64,000 bases of DNA from an uncultured Thermoleophilia bacterium (GCA_963702475.1 CAVPCT010000003.1:736001-800000), one strand, 5' to 3'; counted from the first letter of the stretch, positions 13,355-40,988 are shown. Made by a program: numbers and translations. Notes: generated from the letters alone by a model not told the origin.

Positions 13355-14587
13355 ATGGACTTCCGCTACACCACCGAGCAGGAGATGTACCGCCAGGCCA
13401 TCCGCGAGTGGCTCACCAAGAACGTGGAGCCGCGTTCGCGCGCCATCGACGAGGCCGAGGACGGCATCCCCGACGACATCACCGCGGGCATGGCCGAGAT
13501 GGGCATGTTCGGCACCACCATCCCCGAGGAGTACGGCGGCATGCCGCTCCCGGATGAAGAGCGCCTCATCTACGCCATGATCACGGTCCACGAGATCGCC
13601 CGCGCCGAGCTCAGCATGAGCCTTCCCGTGTACACGCTGCTCACCATCGGCTGGTCGTACATCGTGAACCGCTACGGCACTGAGGAGCTCAAGCAGGAGC
13701 TGTTCCCGGCCGTGGCCGCCGGCAAGGCGTTCGCAGGCATCAACACCACCGAGCCCGGCGGCGGCTCCGACCTCGCCGCCATCAAGACCGTCGCCCCGTG
13801 GAACGAGGAGAAGCAGGCGTACATCCTCAACGGCGAGAAGGCCTACGTCAGCGGCCCCAAGGAGTGCGAGAAGTGGGGCGCCCCGAGTGGCCACTGCTCC
13901 CTCGTCAAGACCGATCCCACGCAGACGTACAAGGGCATGACCTTCATCTGGATCCCAGCCCACCTGGACGGCATCAGCTACACGACCTACAAGGACATGG
14001 GCCGCATGGGCCTCAGCACCGGCGGCTGGATCTACAAGGACGTCGAGCTGCCCAGGAAGTACCTGCTCGGCGAAGAGGGCAAGGGTTTCTACGTCGTGAT
14101 GGACGGCTTCAACGCCGCCCGCGTACTGGTGGCGGCGGCCTGCCTCGGCGGCGCCGAGAAGGCGCTCGAGATCAGCGGTGAGTACACGGCTCAGCGCACC
14201 ACGTTCGGCAAGCCGCTCGGCAAGTACGAGGGCATCAGCTTCGAGATGGCCGGCGACTGGATGCAGCTGGACATGCTCAAGCTCAACCTGCTGCGCGGCG
14301 CCTGGATGATCGGCCAGGAGCACACGAATCCAGGCCAGTTCGGGCGCAAGGAGATCAACAAGGTCATCAGCACCTGCAAGTGCCTCAGCCCGGCGCTGGC
14401 TCACGACATCGCCCGCCACGGCATGATGTACCACGGCGCCTTCGGCTACACCAAGGAGACCCCGCTCGAGATGTTCCTGCGCGGCGTCATGAGCTACGAG
14501 GTGGGCGCCGAGGGCGGCCTCATGATCATGCGCGGCGTGATCGCCCGCGACGAGTGGGGCGAGACGCACAACCCGTTCAAGGATTGA
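13355..14587 (+). CDS. Acyl-CoA dehydrogenase
   Basis: IPEEYGG, TEPGGGSD, LNGEKAYVS, RTTFGKPL, HGAFGY, C-terminal AEG; AGGAGG RBS. Confidence 0.92.
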   Translation: MDFRYTTEQEMYRQAIREWLTKNVEPRSRAIDEAEDGIPDDITAGMAEMGMFGTTIPEEYGGMPLPDEERLIYAMITVHEIARAELSMSLPVYTLLTIGWSYIVNRYGTEELKQELFPAVAAGKAFAGINTTEPGGGSDLAAIKTVAPWNEEKQAYILNGEKAYVSGPKECEKWGAPSGHCSLVKTDPTQTYKGMTFIWIPAHLDGISYTTYKDMGRMGLSTGGWIYKDVELPRKYLLGEEGKGFYVVMDGFNAARVLVAAACLGGAEKALEISGEYTAQRTTFGKPLGKYEGISFEMAGDWMQLDMLKLNLLRGAWMIGQEHTNPGQFGRKEINKVISTCKCLSPALAHDIARHGMMYHGAFGYTKETPLEMFLRGVMSYEVGAEGGLMIMRGVIARDEWGETHNPFKD

Positions 14588-14660
14588 CGCGGAGTGAGCT
14601 CGAGCCGGTCGTCACGGCAACCGGGCGGCGAGGCACGCGAGGGTCAGAAGCCAGAGTGAC

Positions 14661-15950
14661 ATGGAGACAGTGGAGTGCATCGTCGTCGGTGGCGGCCTCG
14701 CCGGCCTCTCCGCGGCCTACGGCCTGGCTCAGGCCGGCATGGAGGTCATGGTCCTCGAGCGCGGGGACTACTCCGGCGCCAAGAACGTAACGGGCGGGCG
14801 CCTGTACGTGAAGCCCATCAGGCGCTTCTACCCCGAGCTGTGGGACGAGGCGCCGTTCGAGCGGCCCATCGCCCGCGAGCTCGTCACCATGATGGCCGGC
14901 GGGCGGCAGACGACCATCGAGATCGCCTCGGAGCGGTTCACGGCCGAGTCGCCGCAGAGCTACTCGGTGGTGCGCGCCAGGCTCGACCAGTACCTGGCCG
15001 ACAGGGTCACCGCGCAGGGCGCCATGGTCGTGCCCAACATGAAGGTGGACGAGCTCCTGCGCAAGGAGGGCCGGATCATCGGCATCCGCGCCGGCGAGGA
15101 CGAGATCGGCGCGCAGGTCGTGGTCGTGGCGGAGGGCGTGCTGCGGCTGCTCAGCGCGGAGGCGGGCCTGGCGGCGAAGCCCGAGGCCCGGCACCACGCG
15201 CTCGGCTACAAGGAGATCATCGAGCTGCCCCAAGGCGTGATCGAGGACCGCTGGCACCTGAACCCGGGCGAGGGCGCCGCGCAGCTCTTCATGGGCGAGT
15301 GCACCAGGGGCATGATGGGCGGCGCCTTCCTGTACACGAACAAGGACAGCATCTCGCTGGGCATCGTCGTGGGGATGGACGACATGCGCCGCCGGCGCGA
15401 CGGCACCGAGAGCTGGCAGCTGCTGGACGAGTTCAAGGAGCTGCCCGCGGTCCGGCCGCTGGTCGCCGGCGGCACCGTGGCCGAGTACTCGGCGCACGCC
15501 ATCCCCGAGGGCGGCATCAGCCAGGTGCCGCGGCTGTCCGGCGACGGCTACGTCGTCGCCGGCGACACCGCGGGGCTCAGCCTGAACGCCCTCATCACCG
15601 TGCGCGGCATGGACTTCGCCATCGCCTCGGGCTACTTCGCGGCCGAGGCGGTCAAGGCCGCCAAGGAGGCCGGGGACTTCTCGGCCGCCGGCCTCGCCTC
15701 CTACGAAGCGAGGCTGCGCGACAGCTTCGTGCTCAGGGACCTGGAGACGGCCAGGGCCATCCCCGGCGTCATGGAGAACCCTCGCCTGTTCACGCACTAC
15801 CCCGAGGCCGTGGGACGGCTGCTCGAGAGCATCTGGACGGTCGACGACCAGCCGCAGGCCGGCCACGTCAAGAAGGCCTGGAAGGCGGCGCGCCGCGACT
15901 TCATGAGCCTGGCGACCGTCAAGGACGCCTGGTCCCTGAGAAAGATATAG
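14661..15950 (+). CDS. fixC: FixC-type FAD-dependent ETF-quinone oxidoreductase
   Basis: IVVGGGLAG, LERGDYSGAKNVTGGRLY, EYSAHAIPEGG, GDTAG, RGMDFAIASG. Confidence 0.9.
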   Translation: METVECIVVGGGLAGLSAAYGLAQAGMEVMVLERGDYSGAKNVTGGRLYVKPIRRFYPELWDEAPFERPIARELVTMMAGGRQTTIEIASERFTAESPQSYSVVRARLDQYLADRVTAQGAMVVPNMKVDELLRKEGRIIGIRAGEDEIGAQVVVVAEGVLRLLSAEAGLAAKPEARHHALGYKEIIELPQGVIEDRWHLNPGEGAAQLFMGECTRGMMGGAFLYTNKDSISLGIVVGMDDMRRRRDGTESWQLLDEFKELPAVRPLVAGGTVAEYSAHAIPEGGISQVPRLSGDGYVVAGDTAGLSLNALITVRGMDFAIASGYFAAEAVKAAKEAGDFSAAGLASYEARLRDSFVLRDLETARAIPGVMENPRLFTHYPEAVGRLLESIWTVDDQPQAGHVKKAWKAARRDFMSLATVKDAWSLRKI

Positions 15951-15967
15951 GAGCCTGAGGAGGAGCC

Positions 15968-16249
15968 ATGCCGATGAAGATCGACGCCAAGCTCGGCCTC
16001 GACGTCTTCAAGCTCGACAAGGAGCCGCACATCGTCATCGACACCGACGTGTGCGCCAAGGTCTGCACCGACGAGGCCTGCGTGTACGTGTGCCCGGCCG
16101 ACCTGTACGAGCGCGACGACCAGGGCCGCATGACGGTCAACTGGGAGGGGTGCCTGGAGTGCGGCACCTGCATGATCTGCTGCGACCCCCGCGCGCTCTC
16201 GTGGGAGTACCCGAGCGGGCCGTACGGGGTGCAGTACCGGATGAGCTGA
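15968..16249 (+). CDS. fixX: FixX-type ferredoxin
   Basis: CVYVCPADLY, EGCLECGTC, WEYP.G..GV.YR. Confidence 0.9.
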   Translation: MPMKIDAKLGLDVFKLDKEPHIVIDTDVCAKVCTDEACVYVCPADLYERDDQGRMTVNWEGCLECGTCMICCDPRALSWEYPSGPYGVQYRMS

Positions 16250-16262
16250 CGGAGGTGACGGC

Positions 16263-17036
16263 GTGGACATCGTGGTCTGCGTGAAGACCAACCCGGACCT
16301 GCAGATGGTCCGCATCAAGGACCGAGTGGCGCAAACCGAGGGCGTGCCGTACAAGATCGGCGACCTCGAGAGGAACGCGCTCGAGGCTGCCGTCGTGCTG
16401 CGCGACGCGGTCGGCGGCAAGGTCGTCGCACTGTGCCTGGCCGAGGGCAACCGCAAGGCGGCCGAGGACATCAAGTACGCCTTGGCGATGGGCGCCGACG
16501 AGGCCGTGGTCGTGGACGACCCGGCCCTCTCGGCGCCGGACCAGGCGGCGGTGGCGGCAGCGCTCGCCGCCGCCGTCAAGAAGATCGGCACCTGCGACCT
16601 GCTGCTGTTCGGCGAGGGCTCCAGCGACAACTACACCGGGCAGGTGGGGTCGCGCGTTGCCGAGCTGCTCGGCGTCCCGCAGATCGGCTACGCCCGCAAG
16701 GTCCAGGCGGAGGACGGTGTGGTGCGCTGCGAGCGCAGCATGGACGACATGCTCGAGACCGTGGAGGCGCCGCTGCCGGCCGCCGTCACCGTGGTCAGCG
16801 AGATCAACGAGCCGCGCATCCCCGGGCTCATGCACATCATGAAGGCCAAGAGCAAGCCCATGCAGACGTGGTCGCTGGCCGACCTGGGCGTCGACGCGCC
16901 GGCGCCGGTACGGGAGATCGTGAGCAACCTGGCGGAGGAGCAGGACCGCAAACACGTCCTGTTCGAGGGCTCGGCGGCCGAGCAGGCCGACGCCTTCGTC
17001 AACGCGCTCATCAAAGAAGGCGTCCTGGGGAGGTAA
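16263..17036 (+). CDS. etfB: Electron transfer flavoprotein beta subunit (FixA/EtfB)
   Basis: MDIVVCVK, ALAMGADEA, GEGSSDNYTGQVG, INEPRIP. Confidence 0.92.
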   Translation: MDIVVCVKTNPDLQMVRIKDRVAQTEGVPYKIGDLERNALEAAVVLRDAVGGKVVALCLAEGNRKAAEDIKYALAMGADEAVVVDDPALSAPDQAAVAAALAAAVKKIGTCDLLLFGEGSSDNYTGQVGSRVAELLGVPQIGYARKVQAEDGVVRCERSMDDMLETVEAPLPAAVTVVSEINEPRIPGLMHIMKAKSKPMQTWSLADLGVDAPAPVREIVSNLAEEQDRKHVLFEGSAAEQADAFVNALIKEGVLGR

Positions 17037-18121: not shown

Positions 18122-18329
18122 TTCCTCTTCTCACGCCGTCTCCGCCGGCTGGTCGTCCGCGAGCTGCTCCATCTCGGCCGGCTGCGTTTCGTCGCGCTGG
18201 GTGCGGCGGCGCGTGCCGGTCGGGATGAGTCCCGCGGCGACGGGTCTGCGCGATGCTGTCGGTTGGAGCGCTACGAGGATGTACGGCACAGGCGTGGCGG
18301 CGGCTTCGGACGTGGAGGGGGCGCGAGGA

Positions 18330-18405
18330 GGGCCAGGTGTCAGCTGATCGTCGGAGCCGACTCGTGATCGGCGGGTCGCCAGTTCGAGTCCAGTTTGGCC
18401 CACCA
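18330..18405 (+). pseudogene. Degenerate full-length copy of tRNA-Ile2(CAT)
   Basis: 18355-18405 matches 33963-34013 at 44/51 nt. Acceptor and anticodon stems still pair, T stem has 2 mismatches, D arm is decayed, anticodon is changed to CGT; ends in CCA. Confidence 0.75.
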
Positions 18406-18491
18406 CGTTGTCACTGCGCACATACATCGCACGGTGAATGAGCGCCCTCCTCCTGCCCGAACACGCGGAGTCCGGCAGCCCGGAGCGCCCT

Positions 18492-28919: not shown

Positions 28920-30122
28920 TCACCGCCCGCCTGGACCGTCCGCCAGCCCAGCCTCGGGCGGCGGCACGCGAGGCAGGTCGCCGGGAAGCATCACGTCGCC
29001 GTCCTTGCCGGGCCCGGTCTCGCCGGCCCGCTGTGCCGTGCGCAGCGCGATGAGGTCCCGCCCCAGCACCCAGGCCGCCGAGGCCAGCGGGATCGCCAGC
29101 AGCACGCCGACGATCCCGCCGAGGCTGGCGCCGACCAGAGCGGCGACGAACACCACCAGCGGGCTCAGCGCCACGGTCTTGGAGTACACGAGGGCCTGCA
29201 GCACGTTGTTCTCGAACTGCTGGTAGAGCACGAAGAACACCACCAGCACCACGCCGTCCACGACGCCGCCGGTGGCGAATCCGACGATGCAGACGATCAC
29301 CGCGCCGATGGTGGCCCCGACCAGCGGGATGATGTCGAGGATGGCCACGAGCACGGCCAGGGTCTCCGCGTAAGGGACCCCCAGGACCTTGAGGACGATG
29401 TACGACGTGATGCCCGCGACGATGCTGATGGCGAGGTTGCCACGCACGTAGCCGCCGGTGGCGCGCAGGAAGTTCTGGCCGATACGCTCGGCCCACACGC
29501 GCTGCTCGCCGACCAGCATCGTCGTGAAGGAGAGCCAGGCGCGCGGCCCTTCGATGAGCATCATCACCATGATCGTGAGGATGGTGATGGTGGCGGCGAT
29601 GATGGAGGCCGCCCGCGTGAGTGCGCTCACGATGGTCGCCTGGCTGCCCATGAGCACCTTGCCGACCTGCTCCGGCGTCACGTCGCGCAAGCGCTCGACC
29701 ACGTGCAGGTTGACCTCCATCCAGCGCAGCGCGCCGCCGGGGCCGAACAGCGAATCCACGAGTCCGGGCAGCGCTCTGATGAAGTCGTCCGCCTGCGTGA
29801 TGACCGGCCAGGCGATGGCCACCGCGGCGCCGGCGATGAGGAGCACCGTGGCGAGTGACACCACGAGCGAGGCCAGGACACGGTGCCAGCGATGCCGCTC
29901 GAGCCAGCCCACGGCCGGCTGCAGCGCGACGGCGAGCACGATGCCGATGAGCACCCAGAGCAGGATGCTGCGGATCTGCCACAGCACGATCACCAGCCCG
30001 ACGACCGCGAGGACCGTCACCGTCACGATCCCCGCGCGGCGGATGAGCTCCGTCGCAGGTACCTTGGGCGGCTGTGGCTGTCGCTGCGGCGTTGGGCTGT
30101 CCACCTGCGGGTGCCCCTTCAC
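28920..30122 (-). CDS. AI-2E family transporter
   Basis: LAVALQPAV..LE, GYVRG, IPLVGATIG, QQFENNVL, LLAIPLA. Confidence 0.88.
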   Translation of the reverse strand: MKGHPQVDSPTPQRQPQPPKVPATELIRRAGIVTVTVLAVVGLVIVLWQIRSILLWVLIGIVLAVALQPAVGWLERHRWHRVLASLVVSLATVLLIAGAAVAIAWPVITQADDFIRALPGLVDSLFGPGGALRWMEVNLHVVERLRDVTPEQVGKVLMGSQATIVSALTRAASIIAATITILTIMVMMLIEGPRAWLSFTTMLVGEQRVWAERIGQNFLRATGGYVRGNLAISIVAGITSYIVLKVLGVPYAETLAVLVAILDIIPLVGATIGAVIVCIVGFATGGVVDGVVLVVFFVLYQQFENNVLQALVYSKTVALSPLVVFVAALVGASLGGIVGVLLAIPLASAAWVLGRDLIALRTAQRAGETGPGKDGDVMLPGDLPRVPPPEAGLADGPGGR

Positions 30123-30308: not shown

Positions 30309-31061
30309 TCAGTCACGCCCGCAGACCGGGCAGGGGCGCATGCCCAGCGGCCGCTCGAGCCCGCTGTCCGCGAGCAGTCCGTCGTCGCGGAACACGTCGC
30401 CGGTGGCTCGATCGGCCACGATCCGTCCCCGGCTCATCACGATCGTGCGCTCGCACAGCTCGGCGGCCAGGTCGAGATCGTGCGTCGCGATGATGCGCGT
30501 GTGCTCGAACGAGGTCAGAAGGCCGATGAGCCGGCGGCGCGCGCGAGCGTCGAGTCCGCTGGAAGGCTCGTCCAGGACGAGGATGCTCGACTCCATGGCG
30601 AGCACGGTGGCGATCGCCACCACGCGCTTCTCGCCGCCCGACAGGTGGTAGGGGGGGCGTTCCCTCAGGTGGTCGGCGCCCACGCGCGCGAGCGCCTGGT
30701 CGACGCGGGCCGCGACGTCGGCCGGCGGCAGCCCGAGGTTCAGCGGCCCGAAGGCCACATCCTCGGCCACCGTCGGCATGAAGAGCTGGTCGTCGGGGTC
30801 CTGGAAGACCATGCCGACGGTGCGGCGGATGTCGGGCAGGGTGCCCTTGGTCACGGGGATGCCGCCGATGTCGACGGAGCCGTGCTCCGGGGTGAGCAGG
30901 CCGTTGAGGTGCAGCAGCAGGGTCGACTTGCCCGCGCCGTTGGCGCCGACGACGGCGATCGCCTCGCCGTGCCCGACCTCGAACGAGACGCCCTCCAGGG
31001 CTCGCGTCCCATCCGGATACTCGAAGCTCAGGTCGCGGACGCTGATGGTGTGGTGGCTCAT
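30309..31061 (-). CDS. cbiO: ECF Ni/Co transporter ATPase (CbiO/NikO)
   Basis: GANGAGKST, FQDPDDQLF, LSGGEKR, LDEP, THD. Confidence 0.9.
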   Translation of the reverse strand: MSHHTISVRDLSFEYPDGTRALEGVSFEVGHGEAIAVVGANGAGKSTLLLHLNGLLTPEHGSVDIGGIPVTKGTLPDIRRTVGMVFQDPDDQLFMPTVAEDVAFGPLNLGLPPADVAARVDQALARVGADHLRERPPYHLSGGEKRVVAIATVLAMESSILVLDEPSSGLDARARRRLIGLLTSFEHTRIIATHDLDLAAELCERTIVMSRGRIVADRATGDVFRDDGLLADSGLERPLGMRPCPVCGRD

Positions 31062-31870
31062 CCGGCGAGCTCCGTCACGAGACGGCCCACGAACAGCGGC
31101 AGGTCGACGAGGCGGAACACCACGAACGCGGCCGACCAGGCGAGCAGGAAGACGAGGTCGGCCGCTCCGAAGTGCAGCTGCCGCGCCACGCGGATGCGGC
31201 CGTCGAAGCCGCGCGACTTCATGGCGAGGTACAGGCGCTGGGCGCGCGCCAGGGTCCGCAGCAGGAGCTGGCCGAGCATCTGCCCGTACACACGCCAGCC
31301 CATCCCGCGCCGCCCGAAGCTGCGCAGGCGGCGCGCCTGGCTCATCCTGGTCGCCTCTTCGCCCAGCACGAAGATGTAGCGGAAGAGAAGGAGAAGCTGC
31401 GTGACCAGCACGTCCGGCACGCGCAGCTGCTGCAGCGCCAGGCAGATGCCGGTGAACCCGGTCGTGGCGGTGAGCACCAGGGCCGCCCCGGCGGTGAGCA
31501 GGAAGCGCAGGACGATGGAGGCGTATGAGACCCAGCCGCCGCTGATGCCCCAGCTGCCGATGTAGACGATGATCTCGCGGTCGAAGAAGGGGTTGAACGC
31601 GCCCATGACGAGGGCGAACGGCGAGACGACCAGGAGCAGGCGGCCGAGGAAGCCGAGAGGCAGGCCGCCCTCCGTCGCCAGGACCACGGGGAAGACGGCG
31701 AACGGCAGCAGGCCGAGCAGGTCGTACTTGCCGTAGGAGACGACGCAGACGATGTAGACGGCGGTGGCGAGGACTTTGGAGCGGGGGTCGACGCGGTGGA
31801 CGGGGGTGTCGAGCCGCGACAGCCTGTCGAGCCGGTCGAGGGCGGAGAGGCCGGTGGCGACGGACGACAC
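31058..31870 (-). CDS. cbiQ: ECF Ni/Co transporter T component (CbiQ/NikQ)
   Basis: HRVDPRSK, FRYIFVL.EE, AMKSRGF. Confidence 0.88.
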   Translation of the reverse strand: MSSVATGLSALDRLDRLSRLDTPVHRVDPRSKVLATAVYIVCVVSYGKYDLLGLLPFAVFPVVLATEGGLPLGFLGRLLLVVSPFALVMGAFNPFFDREIIVYIGSWGISGGWVSYASIVLRFLLTAGAALVLTATTGFTGICLALQQLRVPDVLVTQLLLLFRYIFVLGEEATRMSQARRLRSFGRRGMGWRVYGQMLGQLLLRTLARAQRLYLAMKSRGFDGRIRVARQLHFGAADLVFLLAWSAAFVVFRLVDLPLFVGRLVTELAG

Positions 31871-31883
31871 GGTCTCGCCGGCC

Positions 31884-32300
31884 TCAGACGATCTCGCCCG
31901 TGGTGGTCGCCACGAACTTGCCGTGCTTGACGCCCTTGGTGCCGATCAGGCCGTCGGCGATGCGCTTGATGTCGCGGGCGACGCCGCGCAGCACGACGAC
32001 CTCGAGGCAGTGGTCGGCGTCGAGGTGCACGTGAAGGGACGAGACGATCTCCTGGTGGTGCGTGTGCTGGCTCTCGGTGAGCTTGTCGGCCAGGTCGTGG
32101 GAGTGGTGGTCGTAGACGAGCGTCACCGTACCCACGGCCTCCGCGTCGCCGAGCTCCCACTGCTCCTCGACCAGGGCGCCGCGGATGAGGTCCCGCAAGG
32201 CTTCCGAACGGTTGACGTAGGCCTTCTCGGCGATGAGACGGTCGTAGCGGTCGAGCAGGCGCTCGTCGATGGAGACCCCGAAGCGCGCGAGGTTCGACAT
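31884..32300 (-). CDS. nikR: Nickel-responsive regulator NikR
   Basis: RFGVSI (RHH), [27 protein letters not shown]. Confidence 0.93.
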
Positions 32301-32360
32301 GTCGTCATCCCTCCAGTGTCCGCAGTGTGCCACTCAATGGTCGCAAGAATAGCACGGAAC

Positions 32361-32479
32361 ATGCTACGGATCTCAAGGACGTAGTACCAACCGCGAGTGG
32401 CGTTGACACCTGCCGCAGGCTTCTCTAAAGTACCCAGCTGCGGGGTAGCACGAGTTCACAGTCCGTAACATCGTAGCAC
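32361..32479 (+). promoter_or_regulatory. Sigma70 promoter TTGACA-17-TAAAGT (32403-32431) with candidate NikR operator ATGCTAC-N13-GTAGTAC (32361-32387) and extra GTAGCAC half-sites
   Basis: Motifs read directly between divergent nikR and nikM; the NikR assignment is inferred. Confidence 0.6.
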
Positions 32480-32524
32480 GTCACGGGCTGCTGCACAGGA
32501 ATCATGCGGGGAGGAGCTCTCGCG

Positions 32525-33589
32525 ATGCACATGGCCGATGCGTTGATCTCTCCGGCCGTGGGCGGCGCCATGTGGGCCGCCACCGGCGTGACGATCGCCT
32601 ATAGCGCGCGCAAGGTGCGCAACGAGCTGGACGAGAGCAAGATCCCCCTGATGGGCGTCGCCGGCGCCTTCGTCTTCGCTGCCCAGATGATCAACTTCAC
32701 CATCCCCGGCACGGGCTCCAGCGGCCACCTCGGAGGGGCGCTGATGCTGGCCATACTCCTGGGGCCCGAGGCCGCGTTCCTCGTGATGGCCTCCATACTC
32801 GCGGTGCAGGCGCTGTTCTTCGCCGACGGGGGGCTCCTCGCGCTCGGCTGCAACATCTTCAACCTCGGCTTCTTCCCGGCGTTCGTCGCCTACCCGCTCA
32901 TCTACCGCAAGATGGTGGGAGACGGACCCGAGCTGGGCACAGGCCGCGTGTTCGGCGGCAGCATCCTGGCGGCCATCGTGGGCCTTCAGCTCGGTGCCTT
33001 CGCCGTCGTCCTCGAGACCACCGCCTCCGGTATCACCGAGCTGCCTTTCTCCACCTTCGTGCTGCTGATGCAGCCCATCCACCTTGCGATCGGCGTCGTC
33101 GAGGGCCTCGTGACGGCGGCGGTGGTGCTGTTCGTCTACCGCGCGCAACCCGAGCTGCTGGTCCGCAACGCGGCCCGCAAGCCTCTCGGCGGGCTGCGCC
33201 TCAAGCCGGTGATCATCGGGCTTGCCGTCGCCGCCGTCGTCACCGGCGTCGCCCTCTCGTGGTTCGCCTCCACCAACTCCGACGGCCTCGAGTGGGCCAT
33301 CGCCAGGGTCACGGGCACCGAGGAGGAGCTGCAGACCAGCTCGGCGGCGCACGAAGCCGCCGCCGGCGCGCAGGCACGCACGGCCATCTTGCCGGACTAC
33401 GCCCTGAAGACCGATGCGGCCGCCGAAGAGGCGGTCGTCGAAGAAGAGGGGCCGGTCTGGCCGGCGGTCGACGCCGGCACGAGCCTGTCGGGCGTGGTCG
33501 GCGGAGCCATCGTCGCGGGCATCGTCATGCTCATCGGCTTCCTGCTGTACCGGCGCTCGGCCGCGCGGCGCGCGAGGGCCGGCGCCTAG
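32525..33589 (+). CDS. cbiM: ECF nickel transporter S component NikM/CbiM fused to a PDGLE (NikN) domain
   Basis: MHMADAL N-terminus, QMINF.IPGTGSSGH.GG, FAS..SDGLEW, LPDY. Confidence 0.9.
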   Translation: MHMADALISPAVGGAMWAATGVTIAYSARKVRNELDESKIPLMGVAGAFVFAAQMINFTIPGTGSSGHLGGALMLAILLGPEAAFLVMASILAVQALFFADGGLLALGCNIFNLGFFPAFVAYPLIYRKMVGDGPELGTGRVFGGSILAAIVGLQLGAFAVVLETTASGITELPFSTFVLLMQPIHLAIGVVEGLVTAAVVLFVYRAQPELLVRNAARKPLGGLRLKPVIIGLAVAAVVTGVALSWFASTNSDGLEWAIARVTGTEEELQTSSAAHEAAAGAQARTAILPDYALKTDAAAEEAVVEEEGPVWPAVDAGTSLSGVVGGAIVAGIVMLIGFLLYRRSAARRARAGA

Positions 33590-33936
33590 CCTGGCCCGGC
33601 CGGCGGGCACGGCGCGCGCCGACCTCGCGCCGAGCGGGCCTTCGCCGCTGAGCCCCCGGCTGTGGTCGGGAGCCGGGCTGCGCAACGGTGTTGCACCCGG
33701 GCCGATCCTCGCGCGCCGGACGAGCAGCTCGTGGCAGGAGCCTCCCGCGGCTCCGCACCGCGTGTGCACGAAGCGATGACGGGCAGTGGACGCGGCGCCG
33801 CCCGGACGCGGACGCGCCGCCACGGGAGCCGGTGGCGTTGCCGGTCCTGATACGATTGGCTCCAGCTGCGCGTGATTGGTCAGGGCGGGGCGGGGCGCCT
33901 GCCGCGTCTCGAACGGCCCCGGACGTATGCACACGT

Positions 33937-34013
33937 GGGCCTATAGCTCAGTTGGTTAGAGCAGCCGACTCATAATCGGCCGGTCGCTGGTTCGAGTCCA
34001 GCTGGGCCCACCA
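33937..34013 (+). tRNA. tRNA with CAT anticodon, most likely tRNA-Ile2 (lysidine type)
   Basis: Cloverleaf: gggccta/tgggccc acceptor, gccga-ctCATaa-tcggc anticodon arm, gctgg-ttcgagt-ccagc T arm, encoded CCA; sequence resembles bacterial ileX. Confidence 0.93.
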
Positions 34014-34022
34014 GCCCACCAG

Positions 34023-34094
34023 CGTTGTCACAATGACAACGTTTCTCCCTGCAAAACAGCGTAGTCTGCGTACCCGTTCGTCCATCCGGATGGA
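34023..34094 (+). repeat. Cassette leader copy 1
   Basis: cgttgtca-caa-tgacaacg tttctccctgcaaaac...tacccgttcg tccatccggatgga. Confidence 0.9.
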
Positions 34095-34194
34095 GAGGTG
34101 TATGCCCGCCTCCGGGCACGCGATGTCCGTGCCCGAGGGCGTAAGATGCAATCACCGGGAGTGAGGAGCCTTACGGAGTGGGAGGAGGCTTGAG

Positions 34195-34494
34195 GTGAGT
34201 CTTCAGATCGACGTGGATGCAGAGGGACTGGCTGCCTTCTGCCGGCGCAACGGCATCGGTCGCCTCTCCTTCTTCGGCTCCGTCTTGCGTGAAGACTTCG
34301 GTCCCGAGAGCGACGTCGATGTACTGGTCGAGTTCGTCCCCGACGCCAGGGTCGGGCTCTTCGAGTTCGTCGATCTGCAGCGCCAGCTCGGCGAACTGCT
34401 TGGACGCGACGTCGACCTGCACACGCCCGCGAGCCTCAGCCACTTCTTCCGCGATGACGTGATCGATTCCGCCGAGGTCGCCTATGCCGCATAG
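34195..34494 (+). CDS. MNT (minimal nucleotidyltransferase) antitoxin, MntA-like
   Basis: FGSVLREDFGPESDVDVLVEF (GSx10DxD), LGRDVDL. Confidence 0.9.
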   Translation: MSLQIDVDAEGLAAFCRRNGIGRLSFFGSVLREDFGPESDVDVLVEFVPDARVGLFEFVDLQRQLGELLGRDVDLHTPASLSHFFRDDVIDSAEVAYAA

Positions 34495-34834
34495 GCGCGA
34501 CACTGTCTTCATCGCGCCGATGATCGAGGCGGCCGAGGCGGCAGTCGAGTTCTGCGACGGGCAGACTCCAGAGAGCCTCGCCGGCGACCGCCTCGTCGGC
34601 TTCGCCGTCGTGCGCGCCGTCCAGCTCGTAGGGCAGGCAGCACGCGGCGGATCCGAGGAGCTGCAGGCGGCTCACCCCGAGATCCCTTGGCGCGAGATGA
34701 TCGGCATGCGCAACGTCGTCGTGCACGACTACGCCGATGTCGACATGGCGCTCGTCTGGAAGACAGTGCACGACGACCTGCCTGGGCTCGTCGAACGGTT
34801 GAGGGTGATCATCGCCGAGGACGGCGGCGCCTGA
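34484..34834 (+). CDS. HEPN (DUF86, HepT-like) ribonuclease toxin
   Basis: HPEIPWREMIGMRNVVVHDY (Rx4HxY); overlaps the MNT stop. Confidence 0.9.
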   Translation: MPHRRDTVFIAPMIEAAEAAVEFCDGQTPESLAGDRLVGFAVVRAVQLVGQAARGGSEELQAAHPEIPWREMIGMRNVVVHDYADVDMALVWKTVHDDLPGLVERLRVIIAEDGGA

Positions 34835-34894
34835 AGCAGTCCTTGCGGCGGCGAGGTCAGCCGGCGCCATCGTTCCCTCGGCAGACGGGGCCGC

Positions 34895-35000
34895 AGAAGC
34901 TCGAAAGCTGTCTCCTTAGGTCCACCAACCGTTGTCACAATGACAACGTTTCTCCTGCAAAACGGCGAAGTCCGCCTACCCGTTCTTCCATCCGCATGGA
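34895..35000 (+). repeat. Cassette junction: tail 1 plus leader copy 2
   Basis: agaagctcgaaagctgtct..ggtccacca then cgttgtcacaatgacaacgtttctcctgcaaaac...tacccgttcttccatccgcatgga. Confidence 0.9.
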
Positions 35001-35051
35001 GCGACTGGGAAGACAGCGCGCCTGTGGCCAGTCGAGGCGCTCCCGGGTAGC

Positions 35052-35381
35052 ATGAGCGAAGGAGGTGCCGAAGTGGTCGAGATCCTGGAGGACAAGCGTG
35101 AGGCTATTGCAGAGCTGTGTGCTCGCCACGGCGTCGTGCGTCTCGACGTGTTCGGATCTGCCCTGCGCGACGACTACCGTCCCGGCGAGAGCGATGTGGA
35201 CCTGCTCGTAGAGTTTGGGCCCATGGACGGCTACGCGAAAGCGGTCGCCTACTTCGACCTGCTCGAAGACCTGCGCAGCCTCCTCGGCGTCGAGGTCGAC
35301 CTCGTCATGGCCAGTGCCGTCAAGAACCGCTACATCGCGCGCGACATCGAACGCACGCGGCAGCTGCTCTATGCCGCGTAG
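35052..35381 (+). CDS. MNT antitoxin (second family member); alternative start GTG 35073
   Basis: VFGSALRDDYRPGESDVDLLVEF, LGVEVDLV. Confidence 0.9.
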   Translation: MSEGGAEVVEILEDKREAIAELCARHGVVRLDVFGSALRDDYRPGESDVDLLVEFGPMDGYAKAVAYFDLLEDLRSLLGVEVDLVMASAVKNRYIARDIERTRQLLYAA

Positions 35382-35724
35382 CACCGCTGCCTACCTCGCT
35401 GACGTGGTCGATGCGTGCGACTCGATCAGCGAAGTACTCGAGGGTGTCGATCTCGAGACCTACCGCGCCAGGCGTCCGATCCGCTCTGCTGTGGAGCGCG
35501 AGTTCGTCATCATCGGTGAGGCCGTGTCGGCGCTGACCCGCCAAGCTCCCGAGGTCGCGGCCGGCATCTCCCGTGCGCGCCTCATCGTCGGCTTCCGCAA
35601 CCAGGTCGTGCACGAGTATGCGACCATCGATGACGAGGCCGTGTTTGCGATCGCCCGGCATGACGTGTCAGTCCTCCGTGATGAGTGCGCGGCGCTCCTC
35701 GGCCAGATCGCAGGGGAGGACTGA
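35371..35724 (+). CDS. HEPN (DUF86) ribonuclease toxin
   Basis: AVEREFVIIGEA, GFRNQVVHEY (Rx4HxY). Confidence 0.9.
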   Translation: MPRSTAAYLADVVDACDSISEVLEGVDLETYRARRPIRSAVEREFVIIGEAVSALTRQAPEVAAGISRARLIVGFRNQVVHEYATIDDEAVFAIARHDVSVLRDECAALLGQIAGED

Positions 35725-35775
35725 CACGACACCACTGGTCTCTTCAGGGGCATCCATGCTGCCTGAACCCCGCCG

Positions 35776-35874
35776 AGAAGTTCGAAAGCTGTCTGGTCCA
35801 CCAACGTTGTCAGAATGACAACGTTTCTCCCTGCAAACGGCCGATCTCTGCCTACCCGTTCGACCATGCGCATG
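35776..35874 (+). repeat. Cassette junction: tail 2 plus leader copy 3
   Basis: agaagttcgaaagctgtctggtccacca then acgttgtcagaatgacaacgtttctccctgcaaac...tacccgttcgaccatgcgcatg. Confidence 0.9.
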
Positions 35875-36020
35875 CGCCCACGATCAGCGGCGCCCCCCCC
35901 AGCGTCTTGCGAGCGGACCGCCGCCGGGGGAGACTGGACACCTCAGCGCAGGAGGCCACGGACGCACCAAGGTCCCGCTACGGGAACTACGCCGCTTGGC
36001 TGCGGGGACGGAGGTCATGC

Positions 36021-36233
36021 ATGTCGGTCACCTTCATGATCGAACTGGAGCAAGAGGCCGATGGCCGCTGGATCGCCGAAGTGGTCGAGTTGCCGGGGGT
36101 GCTCGCCTACGGCGCCACCGACAGCGAAGCCATCGCGCGCGTGCAGGCGCTCGCCCTGCGGGTCGTGGCGGACCGCCTGGAGCACGACGAGACCGATCGC
36201 TCCCTGCTGGACATCTCCTTCAAGGCTGCATGA
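36021..36233 (+). CDS. hicB: HicB family antitoxin (short, no DNA-binding domain)
   Basis: IELEQEADGRWIAEVVELPGVLAYG.T..EA. Confidence 0.85.
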   Translation: MSVTFMIELEQEADGRWIAEVVELPGVLAYGATDSEAIARVQALALRVVADRLEHDETDRSLLDISFKAA

Positions 36234-36442
36234 CGGAGTGGCCGAGCACGCGAGCGCGGCTCGTGCTCGCCGCGCTGCTCCGCATCGGCTGGGAGGTCAA
36301 GCGCCAGTCGGGCTCGCACAAGGTACTCGCTCGCCCCGGCCGGCCCGACGTGGTCTTCGCCTTCCACGACGGTGACGAGATCGGGCCACGCATGCTCGCG
36401 AGGATCGCGAAGCACACGGGGCTGAGACCGGAAGACCTGTAG
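36230..36442 (+). CDS. hicA: HicA family mRNA interferase toxin
   Basis: LLRIGWEVKRQSGSH, FHDGDEIGPRML..I.K..GL. Confidence 0.88.
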   Translation: MTEWPSTRARLVLAALLRIGWEVKRQSGSHKVLARPGRPDVVFAFHDGDEIGPRMLARIAKHTGLRPEDL

Positions 36443-36481
36443 GACCACTCTCCTCACTCTCGCCGTCCAATCTGGCTCGAG

Positions 36482-36513
36482 GAGTCCGAAAGCTGTCTTG
36501 TCAGGCTCACCAA
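36482..36513 (+). repeat. Terminal cassette tail with no following leader
   Basis: gagtccgaaagctgtct-tgtca-ggctcaccaa. Confidence 0.7.
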
Positions 36514-36689
36514 ACCCCCCGTGCCACCGCGCGCCACGACGCTCTCTGCTCGCGCCACACGCCGCGCCGAAGCTCACACCGAGGTGAGCACGTCGTCGTG
36601 GCGGCGAGGCGCCCGTGACGGGATCGGCGAGGACGGTCCCTTGGCCAGGGTCGCCACAGACGCGGTGCCGTGCTCACGCGTGAAGTCCG

Positions 36690-37287
36690 CGCGCACCTGA
36701 CGGTTGAGACGCGTGTTCTTCCTGTAGCCAGGTTGCTGACGAGATTGCGGAGAGGCTGGCGGCCGCTCCACATGCCTCCGCCCACCCGCTCCGCTATGCG
36801 GGGCAGGGAGTAGAACCGCCGCGTGCACGGGTCCATCTCGGCGACGATCTGCGCGGTCGACAGCTGAGCCTACCGGGCGACGGGGAGGGCCAGTGTGTAG
36901 TGCTGCCAGTCCTCCGGCGAGCGGTCGAGAAGCACGCGGTCGTCCGCTTTCATCCGGTCCCAGAGGCGAGTACCCGGCAGCGGCGTCAGGAACAGTGCGT
37001 TGAGCGTGTCACACGGCAGACGCTCGCCGTCGTGGCGACACGCCGGCCGATGCCGGGTCGGTCCACGTCCAGGCCGATCACGAAGGACCCGGCCACGAGG
37101 ATCCTGTGCCGCTGGATGCGTCGCGCGGAGGCCCGGAAGTCGCGATCTCCCTGGGCATTCAATCTCTTGCCGAGCTCCCTGAGCCCCTCGGGAGAGGGGG
37201 ACTCGAAGCCGATGAACTCCAGCGGTTCTCTTTGACGCGCAGGATGCTGCCCTGCGGGTCGGACGGGTCGATCAGGAGGAGACGCAT
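36690..37287 (-). pseudogene. Decayed B12-binding radical SAM gene
   Basis: MRLLLIDPS start is fused directly to FIGFES...GSFVIGLDVD, then LTPLPGTRLWDRM and FYSLPRI in shifted frames with a stop; CxxxCxxC region deleted. Confidence 0.65.
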
Positions 37288-37348
37288 GGCGTGTCACGCA
37301 CCTTCCGCCGCGCATGCTCACCGGAGCCATGTCGGCGGTGAAGCCCGG

Positions 37349-37543
37349 TCAGGTCCGGCGCCTGTTCGCCGGCGACGGGCACAAGGCGTCGTGCACCGAG
37401 CAGCAAGGTCCGGGGTTGTAGGCCGAGAGCAGGGTCGTGCAGCCGGGTGACGCGCACACGCGCCCGTACCCGTACTCGGCGATCCGGTCGCCGGCCTTGC
37501 CGGTTGCAGGGGGCAAGAAGCTCCCTGGGGTGCGGGACTTCAA
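37349..37543 (-). CDS. Small Cys/His-rich hypothetical protein
   Basis: YGYGRVCASPGCTTLLSAYNPGPCCSVH; start uncertain. Confidence 0.45.
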   Translation of the reverse strand: MKSRTPGSFLPPATGKAGDRIAEYGYGRVCASPGCTTLLSAYNPGPCCSVHDALCPSPANRRRT

Positions 37544-37607
37544 GAGATCGGGGGGGCGAGGCGACGACAGTCCATGGGGACCCTTCTGTTGGCGGGGACG
37601 GAGCCGG

Positions 37608-39002
37608 TCAGCCGGCCGTGGGGGCGGGCGGTGTCGGGCGACGAACGGCCGCGAGCGTGCGCAGGTACTCGCGGTTGCAGCGGTCTCTGGCCCAGCGACG
37701 CGCGTACCACCAGCACCAGGTGTGGTCGCGCAGGCTGAGCCAGCGGCGTTCTGCGAGGCACGTGAGCCACTGGCGCGTGGAGTAGAAGCGTCGGTACCCC
37801 TCCAGCACGGCCGCCTGGAGCGTGGACGGATCCATGGCGGCGGGCGTGATGACGACGTGCTGCCCGTCGTAGAGCTGCCAGCGCCTGTCGAAGATGCGAC
37901 CTGCGCCGTCCACCTCGTCGAACCAGCCGGTGCCCGGCGCCGGGGTGAGCACGTTCAGCATGACCGTGTCGATGCGGTGGTGCAGGGCGAAGTCCACGGT
38001 GCGGCGCATGGTGGCCGCGTCGTCGCCGTCGGCTCCGAGGACGAACATGCCGTGCACGCGGATGCCGTGGCGGTGGATGGCGTCGATGGCCGCCACGATG
38101 TCGGTGACGGTTTGCGACTTGTGCAGCGCGTCCAGGGTGGCCTGGTCCACCGACTCCAGGCCCAGGCCCAGGGTCTCGCAGCCGGAACGTCGCATGAGAT
38201 CGAGCAGCTCACCGTCCCTCGCGGCATCCGTTCGCACCTGCGCCTGCCAGGGGATCACGAGACCGCGCCCGATCAGGGCGCGCAGCAGGGTCTTGAGGCG
38301 TCCGCGGTCGGCGGCGAAGTTGTCGTCGTAGAAGAAGATGTGCGACGGGCGCTTGCGCTCGATCTCGTCGACCACGCTCGCCGCGCTGCGGAAGCGGTAC
38401 TTGCGCCCGAACATCGCCGTGACCGAGCAGAAGCTGCAGGCGAAGGGGCAGCCCAGGCTGGTCATGATGGGGGTGGAGCGCATGCGTTCGTGCCCGACGA
38501 TGAGGGACAGGTCGGGCACGGGCAGGTCGTCGAGGTCCTCGCAGGCGGGCCGCACCGCGTTGTGGACGTGCCGCCCGTGGCGCGTGAACGAGAGGCCGGC
38601 GATCGATGCCAGATCGCGCTCGCCGCGCAGCGCGGCGAGCAGCTCGATCACGAGCTGGTCGCCGCCCTCGCCGCGCGCCACGTAGTCGGCGTGCGCGAGC
38701 GCCTCGTCGGCCATGAACGTGACGTGCGAGCCGCCGATGATCACCGGCACGCCCCGGCTGCGGAGGCGGTCGGCCATCGCGTACGCGGCCGGGGCCGTGG
38801 ACGTGGTCGTCGAGAACCCGACGATGCCCGCACCGAGCACGTCGTCCCAGTCTACGGGGGCCAGCTGCTCGCAGTAGATGCGCACGTCGTGGCCTGCGTC
38901 GGCAAGTGCGGCGCCGATGATCGGCAGCCCGAGACGTGGGTAGCGCCAGGGCGACATGAGGTGGACGCTCGGCGCCCTCGGCTCGATCAGGCGGATCTTC
39001 AC
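37608..39002 (-). CDS. B12-binding domain radical SAM protein
   Basis: IGGSHVT, GEG, TSLGCPFACSFC, FYDDNF, GLES, TPAPGT. Confidence 0.9.
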   Translation of the reverse strand: MKIRLIEPRAPSVHLMSPWRYPRLGLPIIGAALADAGHDVRIYCEQLAPVDWDDVLGAGIVGFSTTTSTAPAAYAMADRLRSRGVPVIIGGSHVTFMADEALAHADYVARGEGGDQLVIELLAALRGERDLASIAGLSFTRHGRHVHNAVRPACEDLDDLPVPDLSLIVGHERMRSTPIMTSLGCPFACSFCSVTAMFGRKYRFRSAASVVDEIERKRPSHIFFYDDNFAADRGRLKTLLRALIGRGLVIPWQAQVRTDAARDGELLDLMRRSGCETLGLGLESVDQATLDALHKSQTVTDIVAAIDAIHRHGIRVHGMFVLGADGDDAATMRRTVDFALHHRIDTVMLNVLTPAPGTGWFDEVDGAGRIFDRRWQLYDGQHVVITPAAMDPSTLQAAVLEGYRRFYSTRQWLTCLAERRWLSLRDHTWCWWYARRWARDRCNREYLRTLAAVRRPTPPAPTAG

Positions 39003-39041
39003 GGCGCTCCTCTCGCGGTCACCTGCAACGTACCCGCCACG

Positions 39042-40166
<1,125 letters not shown>

Positions 40167-40520
40167 GGGTGTCTCCTGCCGTTGGTCCCGCGCCCTGGGT
40201 GATGGACGGTACGCGCACGGTGGGGCCGGGGCGCCGACATCCGCCGCTCGCGACGGGCGACGCGGGCGCCGAGTCTGATGGTAGAGACGTCAGGCGACGT
40301 TCGGAGCGAGATAGTAAGTGTAACAGGCCGGCGCGTGCGGCGCTGTGTCGGTCGTCTTGCCGCATGACGGCGTGAAGCCTGGGAAGGGTACCATCCTGCG
40401 TGCTATACTGCCGGCGACGGGTCGAGTGGGCCCGCGGAATGTCGACGTGTCGAGCCGCACGTTCGGAGCGGATCTCACGTCATTTCTTGTCCCCGCATGG
40501 GGCGGAAGGAACAGATCAGC

Positions 40521-40727
40521 ATGGCGACAGGCAAAGTGAAGTGGTTCAACGCCGAAAAGGGCTACGGGTTCATCGAGCAGGAAGGCGGCGACGACCTCTT
40601 CGTTCACTTCTCGGCGATCCAGGGTGACGGCTACAAGTCCCTCCAGGAGGGGCAGGCCGTATCCTTCGAGTCCGGCACCGGCCGGAACGGCAAGCCTCAG
40701 GCGACGGAGGTCCGCGTCATCTCCTGA
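40521..40727 (+). CDS. cspA: Cold-shock protein
   Basis: [27 protein letters not shown]. Confidence 0.95.
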
Positions 40728-40746
40728 GCGCCACCGCTTGTACTGC

Positions 40747-40792
40747 AACGGGGCGCGTGCGGCTCACCGAGCCGCACGCGCCCCGTTCGTTT
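40747..40792 (+). terminator. Intrinsic terminator
   Basis: aacggggcgcgtgcggctc-acc-gagccgcacgcgccccgtt followed by cgttt. Confidence 0.8.
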
Positions 40793-40988
40793 GCGCGATC
40801 CCCACGCGCCTCAGGGCCCCGGCCCGTTCCCACACCGGCTGTAGAGACCGCGCCTCTCGGTCAGATGGCGCCCATCACAGCCACGGGTCCGCCCGCGGCC
40901 GTCGTGGCGCCTGCTCGGAGATCTCCGCCAGCGCCTGCCCGACGCGGTGCCGGTGGCACCTCAGGCCGGGGTGTCGATAGCGGAGCGG

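Follow-up and report, generated by a model that had tools for sequence, protein, structure and literature searches.

The question raised by this locus is how three small toxin-antitoxin units came to stand head to tail, with the same non-coding ends, directly behind an intact tRNA gene in a region that encodes no recombinase. The locus is part of a 64,000 nt stretch of DNA (70% G+C) from an uncultured Thermoleophilia bacterium (GCA_963702475.1, CAVPCT010000003.1; coordinates 736001–800000); this whole stretch is referred to below as the window, and positions are counted from its first letter. Behind the tRNA gene (33937–34013, plus strand), the units occupy 34022–34927, 34928–35803 and 35804–36512, and each is bounded by a leader and a tail belonging to a family of ends that recurs in relatives behind several tRNA species and around different cargo. 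The explanation preferred here, to which a probability of about 55% is assigned, is that the units are non-autonomous integrative cassettes that are moved in trans and that site-specific recombination has stacked at the 3' ends of tRNAs.

That three units with shared leader and tail ends follow the tRNA had been proposed in an earlier note on this DNA, and was borne out using ARAGORN, a repeat search and Pfam. The repeat search identified a 77-nt unit starting from CCACCA in three copies (at 34016, 34922 and 35798), and a tail core also in three copies (at 34893, 35774 and 36478). The leader of ~75 nt starts 0–2 nt after CCACCA and consists of a hairpin (CGTTGTCA-N3-TGACAACG), TTTCTCC(C)TGCAAA, CTACCCGTTCG and a short palindrome. 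The tail, with the consensus GA(A/G)G(C/T)(T/C)CGAAAGCTGTCT...GG(TC/CT)CACCA, ends in CACCA. It shares GGTCGAAGGTTCGAA with the 3' part of tRNA-Arg(CCG), and with the window tRNA only blocks resembling GTTCGA and CACCA.

All leaders and tails of the array are on the plus strand. Leader 1 (34023–34096; nhmmer E 1e-15) has its hairpin at 34023–34041, followed by TTTCTCCCTGCAAAA, CTACCCGTTCG and the palindrome TCCATCCGGATGGA at 34081–34094, and the unit is closed by tail 1 (34868–34927; E 1e-11), which ends GGTCCACCA. In leader 2 (34930–35004), the hairpin at 34930–34948 is followed by TTTCT and the palindrome lies at 34987–35000; tail 2 (35755–35803; E 6e-9) has the same end, GGTCCACCA. Leader 3 (35805–35880; E 3e-16) carries its hairpin at 35805–35823 and a palindrome-like sequence, CCATGCGCATG, at 35864–35874. 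Tail 3 (36478–36512), which ends GGCTCACCA, is the distal end of the recognisable array and, as had been stated before, is not followed by a leader. This copy has diverged and was below detection by nhmmer at E 0.01; the proposal that all units share the tail thus holds for the three tail cores, the third being a diverged one. When up to three mismatches were allowed, the leader pattern had four forward matches in the 4.3-Mb genome and a backwards control had none, which excludes chance as its source. In the leaders of this genome, the short palindrome (TCCATCCGGATGGA and variants) stands in place of a second arm repeat; it is absent from most relatives' leaders and could be an operator. A small leader peptide (MTTFLPA...) was rejected, as its ATG falls in the variable hairpin loop and is missing from many copies.

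The cargo of the first unit is a plus-strand gene for an antitoxin-type MNT nucleotidyltransferase of 99 aa (34195–34494; PF01909, E 7.1e-13) that overlaps by 11 nt a gene for a toxin-type HepT/HEPN ribonuclease of 116 aa (34484–34834, plus strand; PF01934, E 5.8e-23). The second unit also encodes, on the plus strand, an MNT nucleotidyltransferase (35052–35381; 102–109 aa, depending on the start codon; PF01909, E 2.7e-13) and a HepT/HEPN protein (35371–35724 by gene call; 116–117 aa; PF01934, E 1.7e-15), and the two MNT proteins are about 41% identical. With overlapping genes and four domains above the Pfam cut-offs, both units are predicted to encode MNT-HepT (MntA/HepT) toxin-antitoxin systems of type II/VII. 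In the third unit, a HicA toxin of 70 aa (36230–36442, plus strand; PF07927, E 8.9e-15, 55 bits) is preceded by a HicB-like antitoxin candidate, also of 70 aa (36021–36233, plus strand), the stop codon of which overlaps the hicA start. The earlier assignment of this unit to HicBA therefore stands for HicA; the HicB label rests on position and size, because the UPF0150-like match (PF21748, E 0.031) is sub-threshold and there was none at E 0.01.

Proteins 83–87% identical to the MNT protein of unit 1 are encoded behind the same tRNA in two other loci (L102 and L088), homologues at the DNA level were found in L114, L208, L183 and others, and relatives of its MNT-HepT pair with 67–71% DNA identity are present in a tRNA-Arg array and a tRNA-Glu array. 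A hicBA pair 78% identical to that of unit 3 is carried, inverted, in the tRNA-Arg array of another genome.

The anchor tRNA has the anticodon CAT, is intact and ends GGGCCCACCA (ARAGORN; Rfam tRNA, 72.6 bits). It is the only tRNA that ARAGORN found in the 64-kb window, and tRNA was the sole family above threshold in an Rfam scan of positions 33000–37500; sub-threshold matches to Plastid-ycf2 (antisense of the tRNA) and to a plant miRNA were dismissed. ARAGORN labels the gene as Met, and the genome includes three tRNAs with a CAT anticodon. One at C3:522512 carries what we take to be the hallmarks of an initiator, and another adjoins Tyr and Thr tRNAs in relatives. By elimination among the three, the assignment of the window tRNA as tRNA-Ile2 in the earlier note is plausible, though not proven. 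The last 8 nt of the tRNA, GCCCACCA, are indeed duplicated in tandem at 34014–34021 (plus strand), and no such duplicate was present at 26 readable orthologous tRNA loci of relatives.

A covariance model (R1) built on CCA and the leader had matches in 37 of the 54 genomes of the genus, with 1–8 copies each, and in 26 of 151 genomes sampled over the class, including 16/25 in family f1, 8/25 in f4 and 1/23 in f3, and none in f2, f5, f6 and f7. The exact leader pattern was found in 39 stretches of a collection with one genome per species (~186,000 species), all of them metagenome-assembled genomes (MAGs) of Thermoleophilia/Actinomycetota, and in at least 120 stretches from metagenomes. A count over 119 loci (0.97 Mb) gave 158 leaders, 125 tails and 60 cassettes that are complete from leader to tail, with sizes of 875–13081 nt (median 2582) and 0–16 genes. 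Among the genomes rich in copies, G145 has 14 leaders and G023 has eight. The leaders carry an arm-repeat word, CCGGTCGC(C)TACCCG(G/A)TCGC, and two or more copies of the CCGGTCGC-type repeat are present in 88 of the 158, vs 42 of 2000 random 100-nt segments.

Nearly half of the unique junctions (22/45) follow a complete tRNA, namely CAT in eight cases, Arg-CCG in seven, Ala-CGC/GGC/TGC in five, and Glu-TTC and Lys-CTT in one each; in the remainder the leader follows a tail or a tRNA 3' fragment. Seven or more tRNA species thus have a leader at their CCA end, and other leaders adjoin a tail. Among 106 leaders in 80 metagenome loci, 62 follow a tail, 13 tRNA-CAT, six tRNA-Arg, three tRNA-Ala and 21 other sequence, and one is at a contig start. 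The cargo includes MNT-HEPN pairs of two kinds, ParE, MerR and a homologue of Arr-type rifampin ADP-ribosyltransferases, as well as a Fur and peroxidase operon, an AAA/DUF4143 ATPase, a methyltransferase, transporters and dehydrogenases. The description of the units as discrete, integrase-free cassettes with varied cargo was therefore upheld by the searches across genus, class and metagenomes, which found them widespread and behind several tRNAs. The Arr-type homologue (PF12120, E 2e-48) is at 10502–10930 in L065 and recurs beside leaders in L069, L124, L195 and L204.

Variation at orthologous sites shows that occupancy is not fixed. Of 27 orthologous tRNA loci, 14 have a leader directly after CCA, two a degenerate one and ten none, and one is at a contig edge. 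In two genomes (G061 and G072), the orthologue of the window gene at 40989 lies within ~60 nt of tRNA-CAT with no cassette between them; at the same site, a degenerate leader is all that is present in G004, the MNT-HepT cassette stands alone in G022 and is decayed in G034, and the cargo in G018 is a different one. Fixed, identical cargo without empty sites was not seen: at this tRNA some relatives lack cassettes altogether, some have a single one (the same MNT-HepT) and others hold different cargo. Sharing is widest for the MNT-HepT cassette nearest the tRNA (G022, G034, G025 and metagenome contigs), and units 2 and 3 are for this reason probably later additions at tail 1. The idea that insertions occurred one after another at CCACCA is accordingly retained in part: units are stacked at CCA, and the distal ones look like additions at a tail.

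Two near-identical pairs locate the left boundary of exchange. A cassette for a beta-helix protein (432-aa gene) is shared at 98% identity by two genomes; it stands third in the array and behind a tail in one (G077), first and behind tRNA-CAT in the other (G013), and the identity begins exactly at CCACCA followed by AATGTTGTCA. A MerR cassette is present twice in G013, with 98.3% identity over 1076 nt, again from CCACCA, in one case behind a tail and in the other behind a different tRNA-like end. These two clean left boundaries place the exchange point at or just before the CCA end. A third cassette, carrying the Fur-peroxidase genes, in a second array of the window genome has a counterpart of ~95% identity in G069, where it belongs to the tRNA-CAT array.

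The tails also match their anchors. In anchored arrays, 11 of the 12 tails behind tRNA-CAT, which itself ends CCACCA, end CCACCA, and those behind tRNA-Arg or tRNA-Glu, which end GCACCA, end GCACCA (5/6) or GCGCCA (1/6), with no cross-type combination; these counts are not independent, as arrays share ancestry. Over all tails, the two end types number 45 and 37, and the G/C position co-varies with other tail positions, so that the tail types are subfamilies. Such a match between tail subtype and anchor would be expected if a recombinase required its two partners to be identical in a short overlap that contains (G/C)CACCA.

No recombinase is encoded in the window, in agreement with the earlier note. 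Six PF00589 matches were found in the genome, all outside the window; three are fragments, two are Xer-like genes and one is a full-length integrase next to tRNA-Asn (C3:719488–720759). PF00239, PF01797 and PF00078 had no match in the genome or the window within it, an absence of Resolvase, Y1_Tnp and RVT_1 that is not proven because the assembly is 93.8% complete. When 998 proteins from array loci were clustered, no recurrent candidate-enzyme gene was found, and the top clusters were flanking housekeeping genes and cargo. The ends are neither attC nor dif sites, as had been noted. Several enzymes were considered and rejected: a third Xer-like gene occurs in genomes without leaders and has no copy in this one; the junction does not look like the dif site of XerC/D; and a target-site duplication made by a DDE transposase does not fit ends that have no terminal inverted repeats.

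The leader has a counterpart beside integrase genes of the same genus. Islands with an intact integrase at tRNA-Asn, -Cys, -Arg-CCG, -Met, -Thr and -Ser show CCA, sometimes a hairpin, and a sequence like YYCCTGCAAA, then two direct repeats of 7–8 nt (GTACTCC, GTCCTCC, TTGGTGCC) and the integrase gene, which is on the other strand and so comes with its 3' end first. In the window genome, a remnant of this kind (C3:835765–836268; L010/L129) includes tRNA-Gly, tRNA-Cys, a hairpin-less leader with ACTC then TTTCTTCCTGCACAGGGCCAACTTC, and, encoded on the opposite strand, a C-terminal tyrosine integrase fragment of ~100 aa; the tRNA-Cys integrase family has matches in 43 of the 54 genus genomes. Judged by its layout, the order of elements in the leader is that of the tRNA-side attachment arm of the genus integrase islands, with a repeat word of its own, and leader and tail together look like the two arms of an attP that belonged to a heterobivalent, tRNA-targeting integrase, the gene for which has since disappeared. 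At the tRNA-Cys locus of G145, a full-length integrase (L280; coordinates 8597–10045, minus strand) is present, with two long open reading frames (ORFs) between it and the tRNA.

Viral contigs searched with the leader, tail and repeat patterns gave one match, and plasmid and phage collections gave none. The match is at the end of L108, a phage-like IMG/VR contig in which gene sizes suggest a portal and a terminase, and the last 100 nt of which are a tRNA 3' fragment then a leader. A prophage had therefore entered an anchor tRNA ahead of an array, and some of the junctions between a tRNA fragment and a leader are by-products of other elements that entered the anchor tRNA upstream of an existing leader.

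In the mechanism that we infer, which extends to recombination in trans, the position of the crossover and the nature of the enzyme, the tail and leader of a circular cassette would together form an attP-like site. The tail would be the P arm, a mimic of the tRNA 3' end with a T-loop-like GGTTCGA, an acceptor-like stem and (G/C)CACCA. The leader would be the P' arm, with the hairpin, TTCYCCCTGCAA and two CCGGTCGC-type direct repeats as putative arm-type binding sites for an integrase. A circle with the order tail-(G/C)CACCA-leader would recombine with a tRNA or a tail, which share the heptamer end and have a T-arm-like sequence before it, and the crossover would be made in or beside the terminal (G/C)CACCA by conservative site-specific recombination. 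Because of this position, the tRNA would be kept intact, each tail would become a new target and arrays would grow. The recombinase acting in trans would most likely be a tyrosine integrase of the tRNA-targeting family that is common in the genus. The hairpin and T-run may also stop read-through from the tRNA or from an upstream cassette, and the toxin-antitoxin cargo would stabilise the array and help cassettes to persist. The array of this genome is probably frozen at present, as the closest-family integrase, beside tRNA-Cys, is a fragment.

A number of observations weigh against recombination in trans. Those concerning the enzyme begin with 15 further genomes, the arrays of which are free of PF00589 matches; the closest such matches are at distances of 6 and 13 kb, the latter belonging to a tRNA-Cys island. 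A tblastn search of the 80 metagenome loci for recombinases found one N-terminal fragment, 5 kb from a leader. The arm-repeat word, with 0–1 mismatch, occurs across the genus almost only in leaders, and among the matches listed none coincides with a listed integrase, so that the recombinase with the same ends that had been envisaged elsewhere was not found. Full-length integrases of the candidate family are also present in leader-free genomes (G007, G026 and G073), and there is for this reason no signal of co-occurrence between integrase and leader. Excised circles, which the earlier note had proposed to look for in read data, were not seen in the covered parts of four public runs, nor was any joint of cassette boundaries, a result of little weight given short, low-depth contigs; one contig of these runs bridges the junction of tail 1 and leader 2.

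Other difficulties lie in the cassettes themselves. The cargo genes of the 60 complete cassettes are on both strands (114 plus, 90 minus), and the hicBA pair is inverted elsewhere. In both near-identical pairs, identity on the right-hand side ends just past the cargo gene and not at the CCA of the tail. In the Fur-peroxidase pair, the tails agree in their 5' part to GGTTCGAG and then continue as the tRNA-CAT 3' end in one and the canonical tail in the other. A crossover in the T-loop (GGTTCGA) fits this pair, which is kept as an exception; as a general position it is disfavoured, because it would destroy the window tRNA, whose tails are not tRNA-type. Two bases separate CCA from GTTGTCA in 104 of 153 junctions, but the spacing ranges from 1 to 5, which is looser than is usual for a recombinase site. 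A second type of leader was found in L058 (G077:C12), where at 5298 and 14091 (oriented) two tails are followed by a conserved ~70 nt, AGCAYTAGCATKATAGT...GGCCGT...TCACCCCT, in place of the hairpin leader. Finally, seven metagenome loci (L168, L159, L219, L210, L218, L167 and L190) have double tails, in which a single leader is preceded by two tails at a distance of 3–90 nt from each other. This is the picture that would be given by a cassette that is nothing but a tail, or from which leader and cargo have disappeared.

Part of this evidence would be expected if no dedicated recombinase were involved and the ends were RNA or regulatory modules, the leader a terminator or 5' stabilising hairpin and the tail a tRNA-like element for 3' processing or stabilisation, that accompany accessory genes in hot spots beside tRNAs, with the ~70-nt repeats and the conserved tRNA serving to shuffle cassettes by homologous recombination after DNA uptake. 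The hairpin 0–4 nt past CCA is followed by TTTCT, and one copy passes a terminator scan; genes of small cassettes (≤1300 nt) mostly run from leader to tail (18 plus vs 2 minus); identity along one cassette falls into blocks of 98%, 55–75% and ~90%; right-hand homology stops before the tail; there is no linked recombinase; and the acceptor-like inverted repeat of the tail is 76% paired in register, vs 24–56% in shifted registers. However, homologous recombination cannot set a leader exactly after the CCA of seven unrelated tRNA species, the match of tail subtype to anchor end is left unaccounted for, and gene orientation over all complete cassettes is near random, with hicBA inverted elsewhere. 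A promoter and terminator scan of the region gave no promoter-like sequence and one terminator-like sequence (leader 2), vs a mean of 1.1 in shuffles. In RNA folds of the three tail-leader junctions and one from a relative (z +0.13, -2.36, +0.23 and -1.31), only the hairpin was robust; two of the four (+0.13 and +0.23) were no better than shuffles and one (-2.36) was clearly better. The layout of the leader is also common to integrase attachment arms. This account is rather unlikely. It is improbable, too, that the cassettes are decayed islands that were once autonomous, entering with an integrase of their own that was later lost and never being mobilised in trans. Integrase-bearing islands of the genus do have a similar tRNA-side arm, integrase fragments lie beside tRNAs in this genome, and there are junctions of a tRNA 3' fragment with a leader, one at a prophage end. 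Yet the ~0.97 Mb with 158 leaders yielded one integrase fragment, outside any cassette; even at 0.9 kb, cassettes have an intact leader and tail that are conserved between families of the class, as would not be expected of random decay; and the canonical tail is one sequence across arrays at different tRNAs and not a fragment of the local tRNA.

Two further explanations dispense with an ordinary heterobivalent integrase. A dedicated, integron-like capture by an unrecognised recombinase that reads folded single-stranded sites, formed by the tail minihelix and leader hairpin, could draw on the two conserved hairpin-forming elements of each junction, on a compensatory pair in the tail stem (G-C/C-G) and on integrase-free arrays rich in toxin-antitoxin cargo, which resemble the CALINs of an integron survey (PMC4889954). 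It is distinctly improbable: no conserved gene of unrecognised function accompanies the arrays among the 998 clustered proteins, neither an attC signature nor an integron integrase was found, and the covariation amounts to one event, the compensatory pair (39 vs 34 sequences) separating two subfamilies, whereas the inner pairs of the leader hairpin vary without compensation. Stacking through RNA, in which a reverse transcriptase would jump from a CCA-ended cassette transcript to a tRNA or cassette RNA and the complementary DNA (cDNA) would be fixed by recombination, is hardly credible. It would explain junctions exactly at CCA, the variable spacer of 1–5 bases before GTTGTCA and tails that mimic a tRNA 3' end, and it has a parallel in the template switching of retroplasmids. 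It is contradicted by the absence of an RVT_1 match in the genome, by cassettes of up to 13 kb with genes on both strands, by the fit of tail subtype to anchor and by a leader with features of integrase arms. Non-autonomous cassettes moved in trans thus remain the preferred explanation. A bolder reading, in which Thermoleophilia would possess a lineage-wide, integron-like capture system that docks on tRNAs and tails at (G/C)CACCA, uses minihelix and hairpin sites and depends on an unrecognised trans-acting recombinase, either dedicated or a domesticated tRNA-island integrase, is unlikely; if true, such a system would stock toxin-antitoxin, resistance and metabolic genes and take the place of the integrons that are reported to be absent from Actinobacteria.

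Islands of tRNA-targeting tyrosine integrases are integrated 3' of a tRNA, which is kept intact. The cassettes resemble them in the intact tRNA and in the direct-repeat arm beside it, a layout also seen in the genus islands, but lack an integrase, have a core of ~6–7 nt plus a T-loop-like motif in place of a 30–50-nt tRNA copy, and carry tails that are further targets. Cis-mobilisable elements (CIMEs) are bounded by att sites, have no recombination genes, accrete in tandem and use a recombinase located elsewhere, and were defined beside a helper integrative and conjugative element (ICE) with the same att sites. The cassettes are likewise framed by att-like sites and carry no genes for recombination or transfer; unlike CIMEs, they have no helper with matching att sites that could be found, and they are many, small and spread across three families of the class. 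An IS200/IS605-type origin found no support, as there is no PF01797 match in the genome and the leader hairpin and tail stem are unrelated in sequence, and no Rfam family was matched by the cassette ends.

According to a published account of Actinomarinales, that group has additive tRNA islands in which the small cassettes have a partial tRNA repeat at their distal end. As far as that account goes, these islands are alike in the actinobacterial lineage, the use of several tRNAs, the distal tRNA-like repeat, exchange between genera and the lack of mobile-element genes nearby, whereas the Thermoleophilia cassettes add a ~75-nt leader with hairpin and direct repeats, a family-wide ~60-nt tail that is not a copy of the local tRNA, and cargo rich in toxin-antitoxin genes. 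Tycheposons of Prochlorococcus, as described (bioRxiv 10.1101/2020.12.28.424599), integrate in tandem at tRNAs with partial tRNA copies between them and encode their own tyrosine recombinase. As described there, they too are cargo elements at a set of tRNAs, in which older ones are pushed outward and degenerate remnants accumulate. Each tycheposon subfamily in that description uses one tRNA, whereas the cassettes have no recombinase, are found at ≥7 (at least seven) tRNA species and may be <1 kb; neither a tyrosine recombinase nor a small serine recombinase of the tycheposon type was found in the cassettes, and the genome has no PF00239 match.

Head-to-tail cassettes, a conserved site-like junction, toxin-antitoxin cargo and arrays without a neighbouring integrase are shared with integrons and CALINs as these are presented in the integron survey, which reported no complete integrons in the Actinobacteria genomes searched (Cury et al. 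2016, PMC4889954). The arrays are not integrons: they have no attC, IntI or attI/Pc, are headed by a tRNA 3' end and contain cassettes that often carry several genes, on either strand, where integron cassettes mostly hold one promoterless ORF in a fixed orientation. The attC site is an imperfect palindrome with R''/L'' and L'/R' boxes (RYYYAAC ... GTTRRRY). In the hairpin GTTGTCA/TGACAAC, only the GTT and AAC triplets fit this consensus, and its arms are 3–5 nt apart, unlike the spacing of an attC.

The suggestion that the system may be undescribed was thus too strong, as the leader has the layout of the genus integrase islands, and additive tRNA islands and tandem accretion beside tRNAs have been described. 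The nearest described kinds are CIMEs, tycheposon arrays and additive tRNA islands. What is new is the combination of a conserved two-part frame (hairpin leader and tRNA-mimic tail), many tRNA species, very small units and no linked recombinase across three families. Keyword searches of the literature found no description of the leader and tail family, which is not proof that it is unpublished.

If the cassettes do move in trans, they would represent a compact and modular form of gene exchange in an abundant, poorly studied class of soil and sediment bacteria, and would show how minimal units can make up additive islands beside tRNAs. A single pair of ends is used at many tRNA targets, and the arrays hold addiction modules, the rifampin ADP-ribosyltransferase homologue, regulators and metabolic operons. 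Movement in trans would also imply an integrase with relaxed tRNA choice, of possible interest as a recombination tool; if the ends were instead punctuation at the RNA level, they would be a new kind of operon insulation. The ~150-nt junction of tail and leader is a searchable marker for cassette boundaries in metagenomes.

Further traces of the family are present in the same genome. A second, decayed array (C3:1123442–1136274; L109, coordinates 3442–16274) starts with a tRNA-like fragment and a leader, without a tRNA. This leader is the fourth of the genome, and tails lie at 1132798 and 1136221. The array consists of a 9-kb and a 3.4-kb cassette, with Fur and a split catalase-peroxidase-like gene, and the hairpin of the leaders that follow its tails is lost or degraded. 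A solitary tail of the GGTTCGAGCGTTGTCCACTGAGGTGCACCA type, with no leader after it, is at C3:952007–952070. Within the window, a pseudo-tRNA at 18300–18410 includes a 51-nt copy, 86% identical to positions 27–77 of the CAT tRNA, that ends GGCCCACCA and is followed directly by CGTTGTCAC, the start of the leader hairpin. This copy has the orientation of the real tRNA, is situated 15.6 kb upstream of it and may be a former junction.

The surroundings of the array have changed on both sides of the tRNA. Upstream, a cobalt/nickel uptake cluster (30309–33589), which includes CbiM with a PDGLE domain (Pfam) and three neighbouring genes, sits between the tRNA and the gene at 28920–30122, the orthologue of which directly precedes the tRNA in most relatives. 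The cluster is inserted relative to these genomes, and the upstream side of the tRNA has therefore gained DNA too. At the array's distal end, a contig of one public run (X1; depth 4.9, at least 147 nt per side, 1–2 mismatches) joins 36311 to 37316, skipping 1004 nt, and points to a near-identical strain without the 3' part of hicA, tail 3 and ~800 nt of the flank; the breakpoints are away from the cassette ends. A stretch of 4.5 kb (36514–40988), in which no leader or tail was detected, separates the array from the gene that in G061 and G072 adjoins the tRNA; it encodes a B12-binding radical SAM protein (37608–39002, minus strand), a full-length sigma-70 factor (39042–40166, minus strand) and a cold-shock-like protein (40497–40727).

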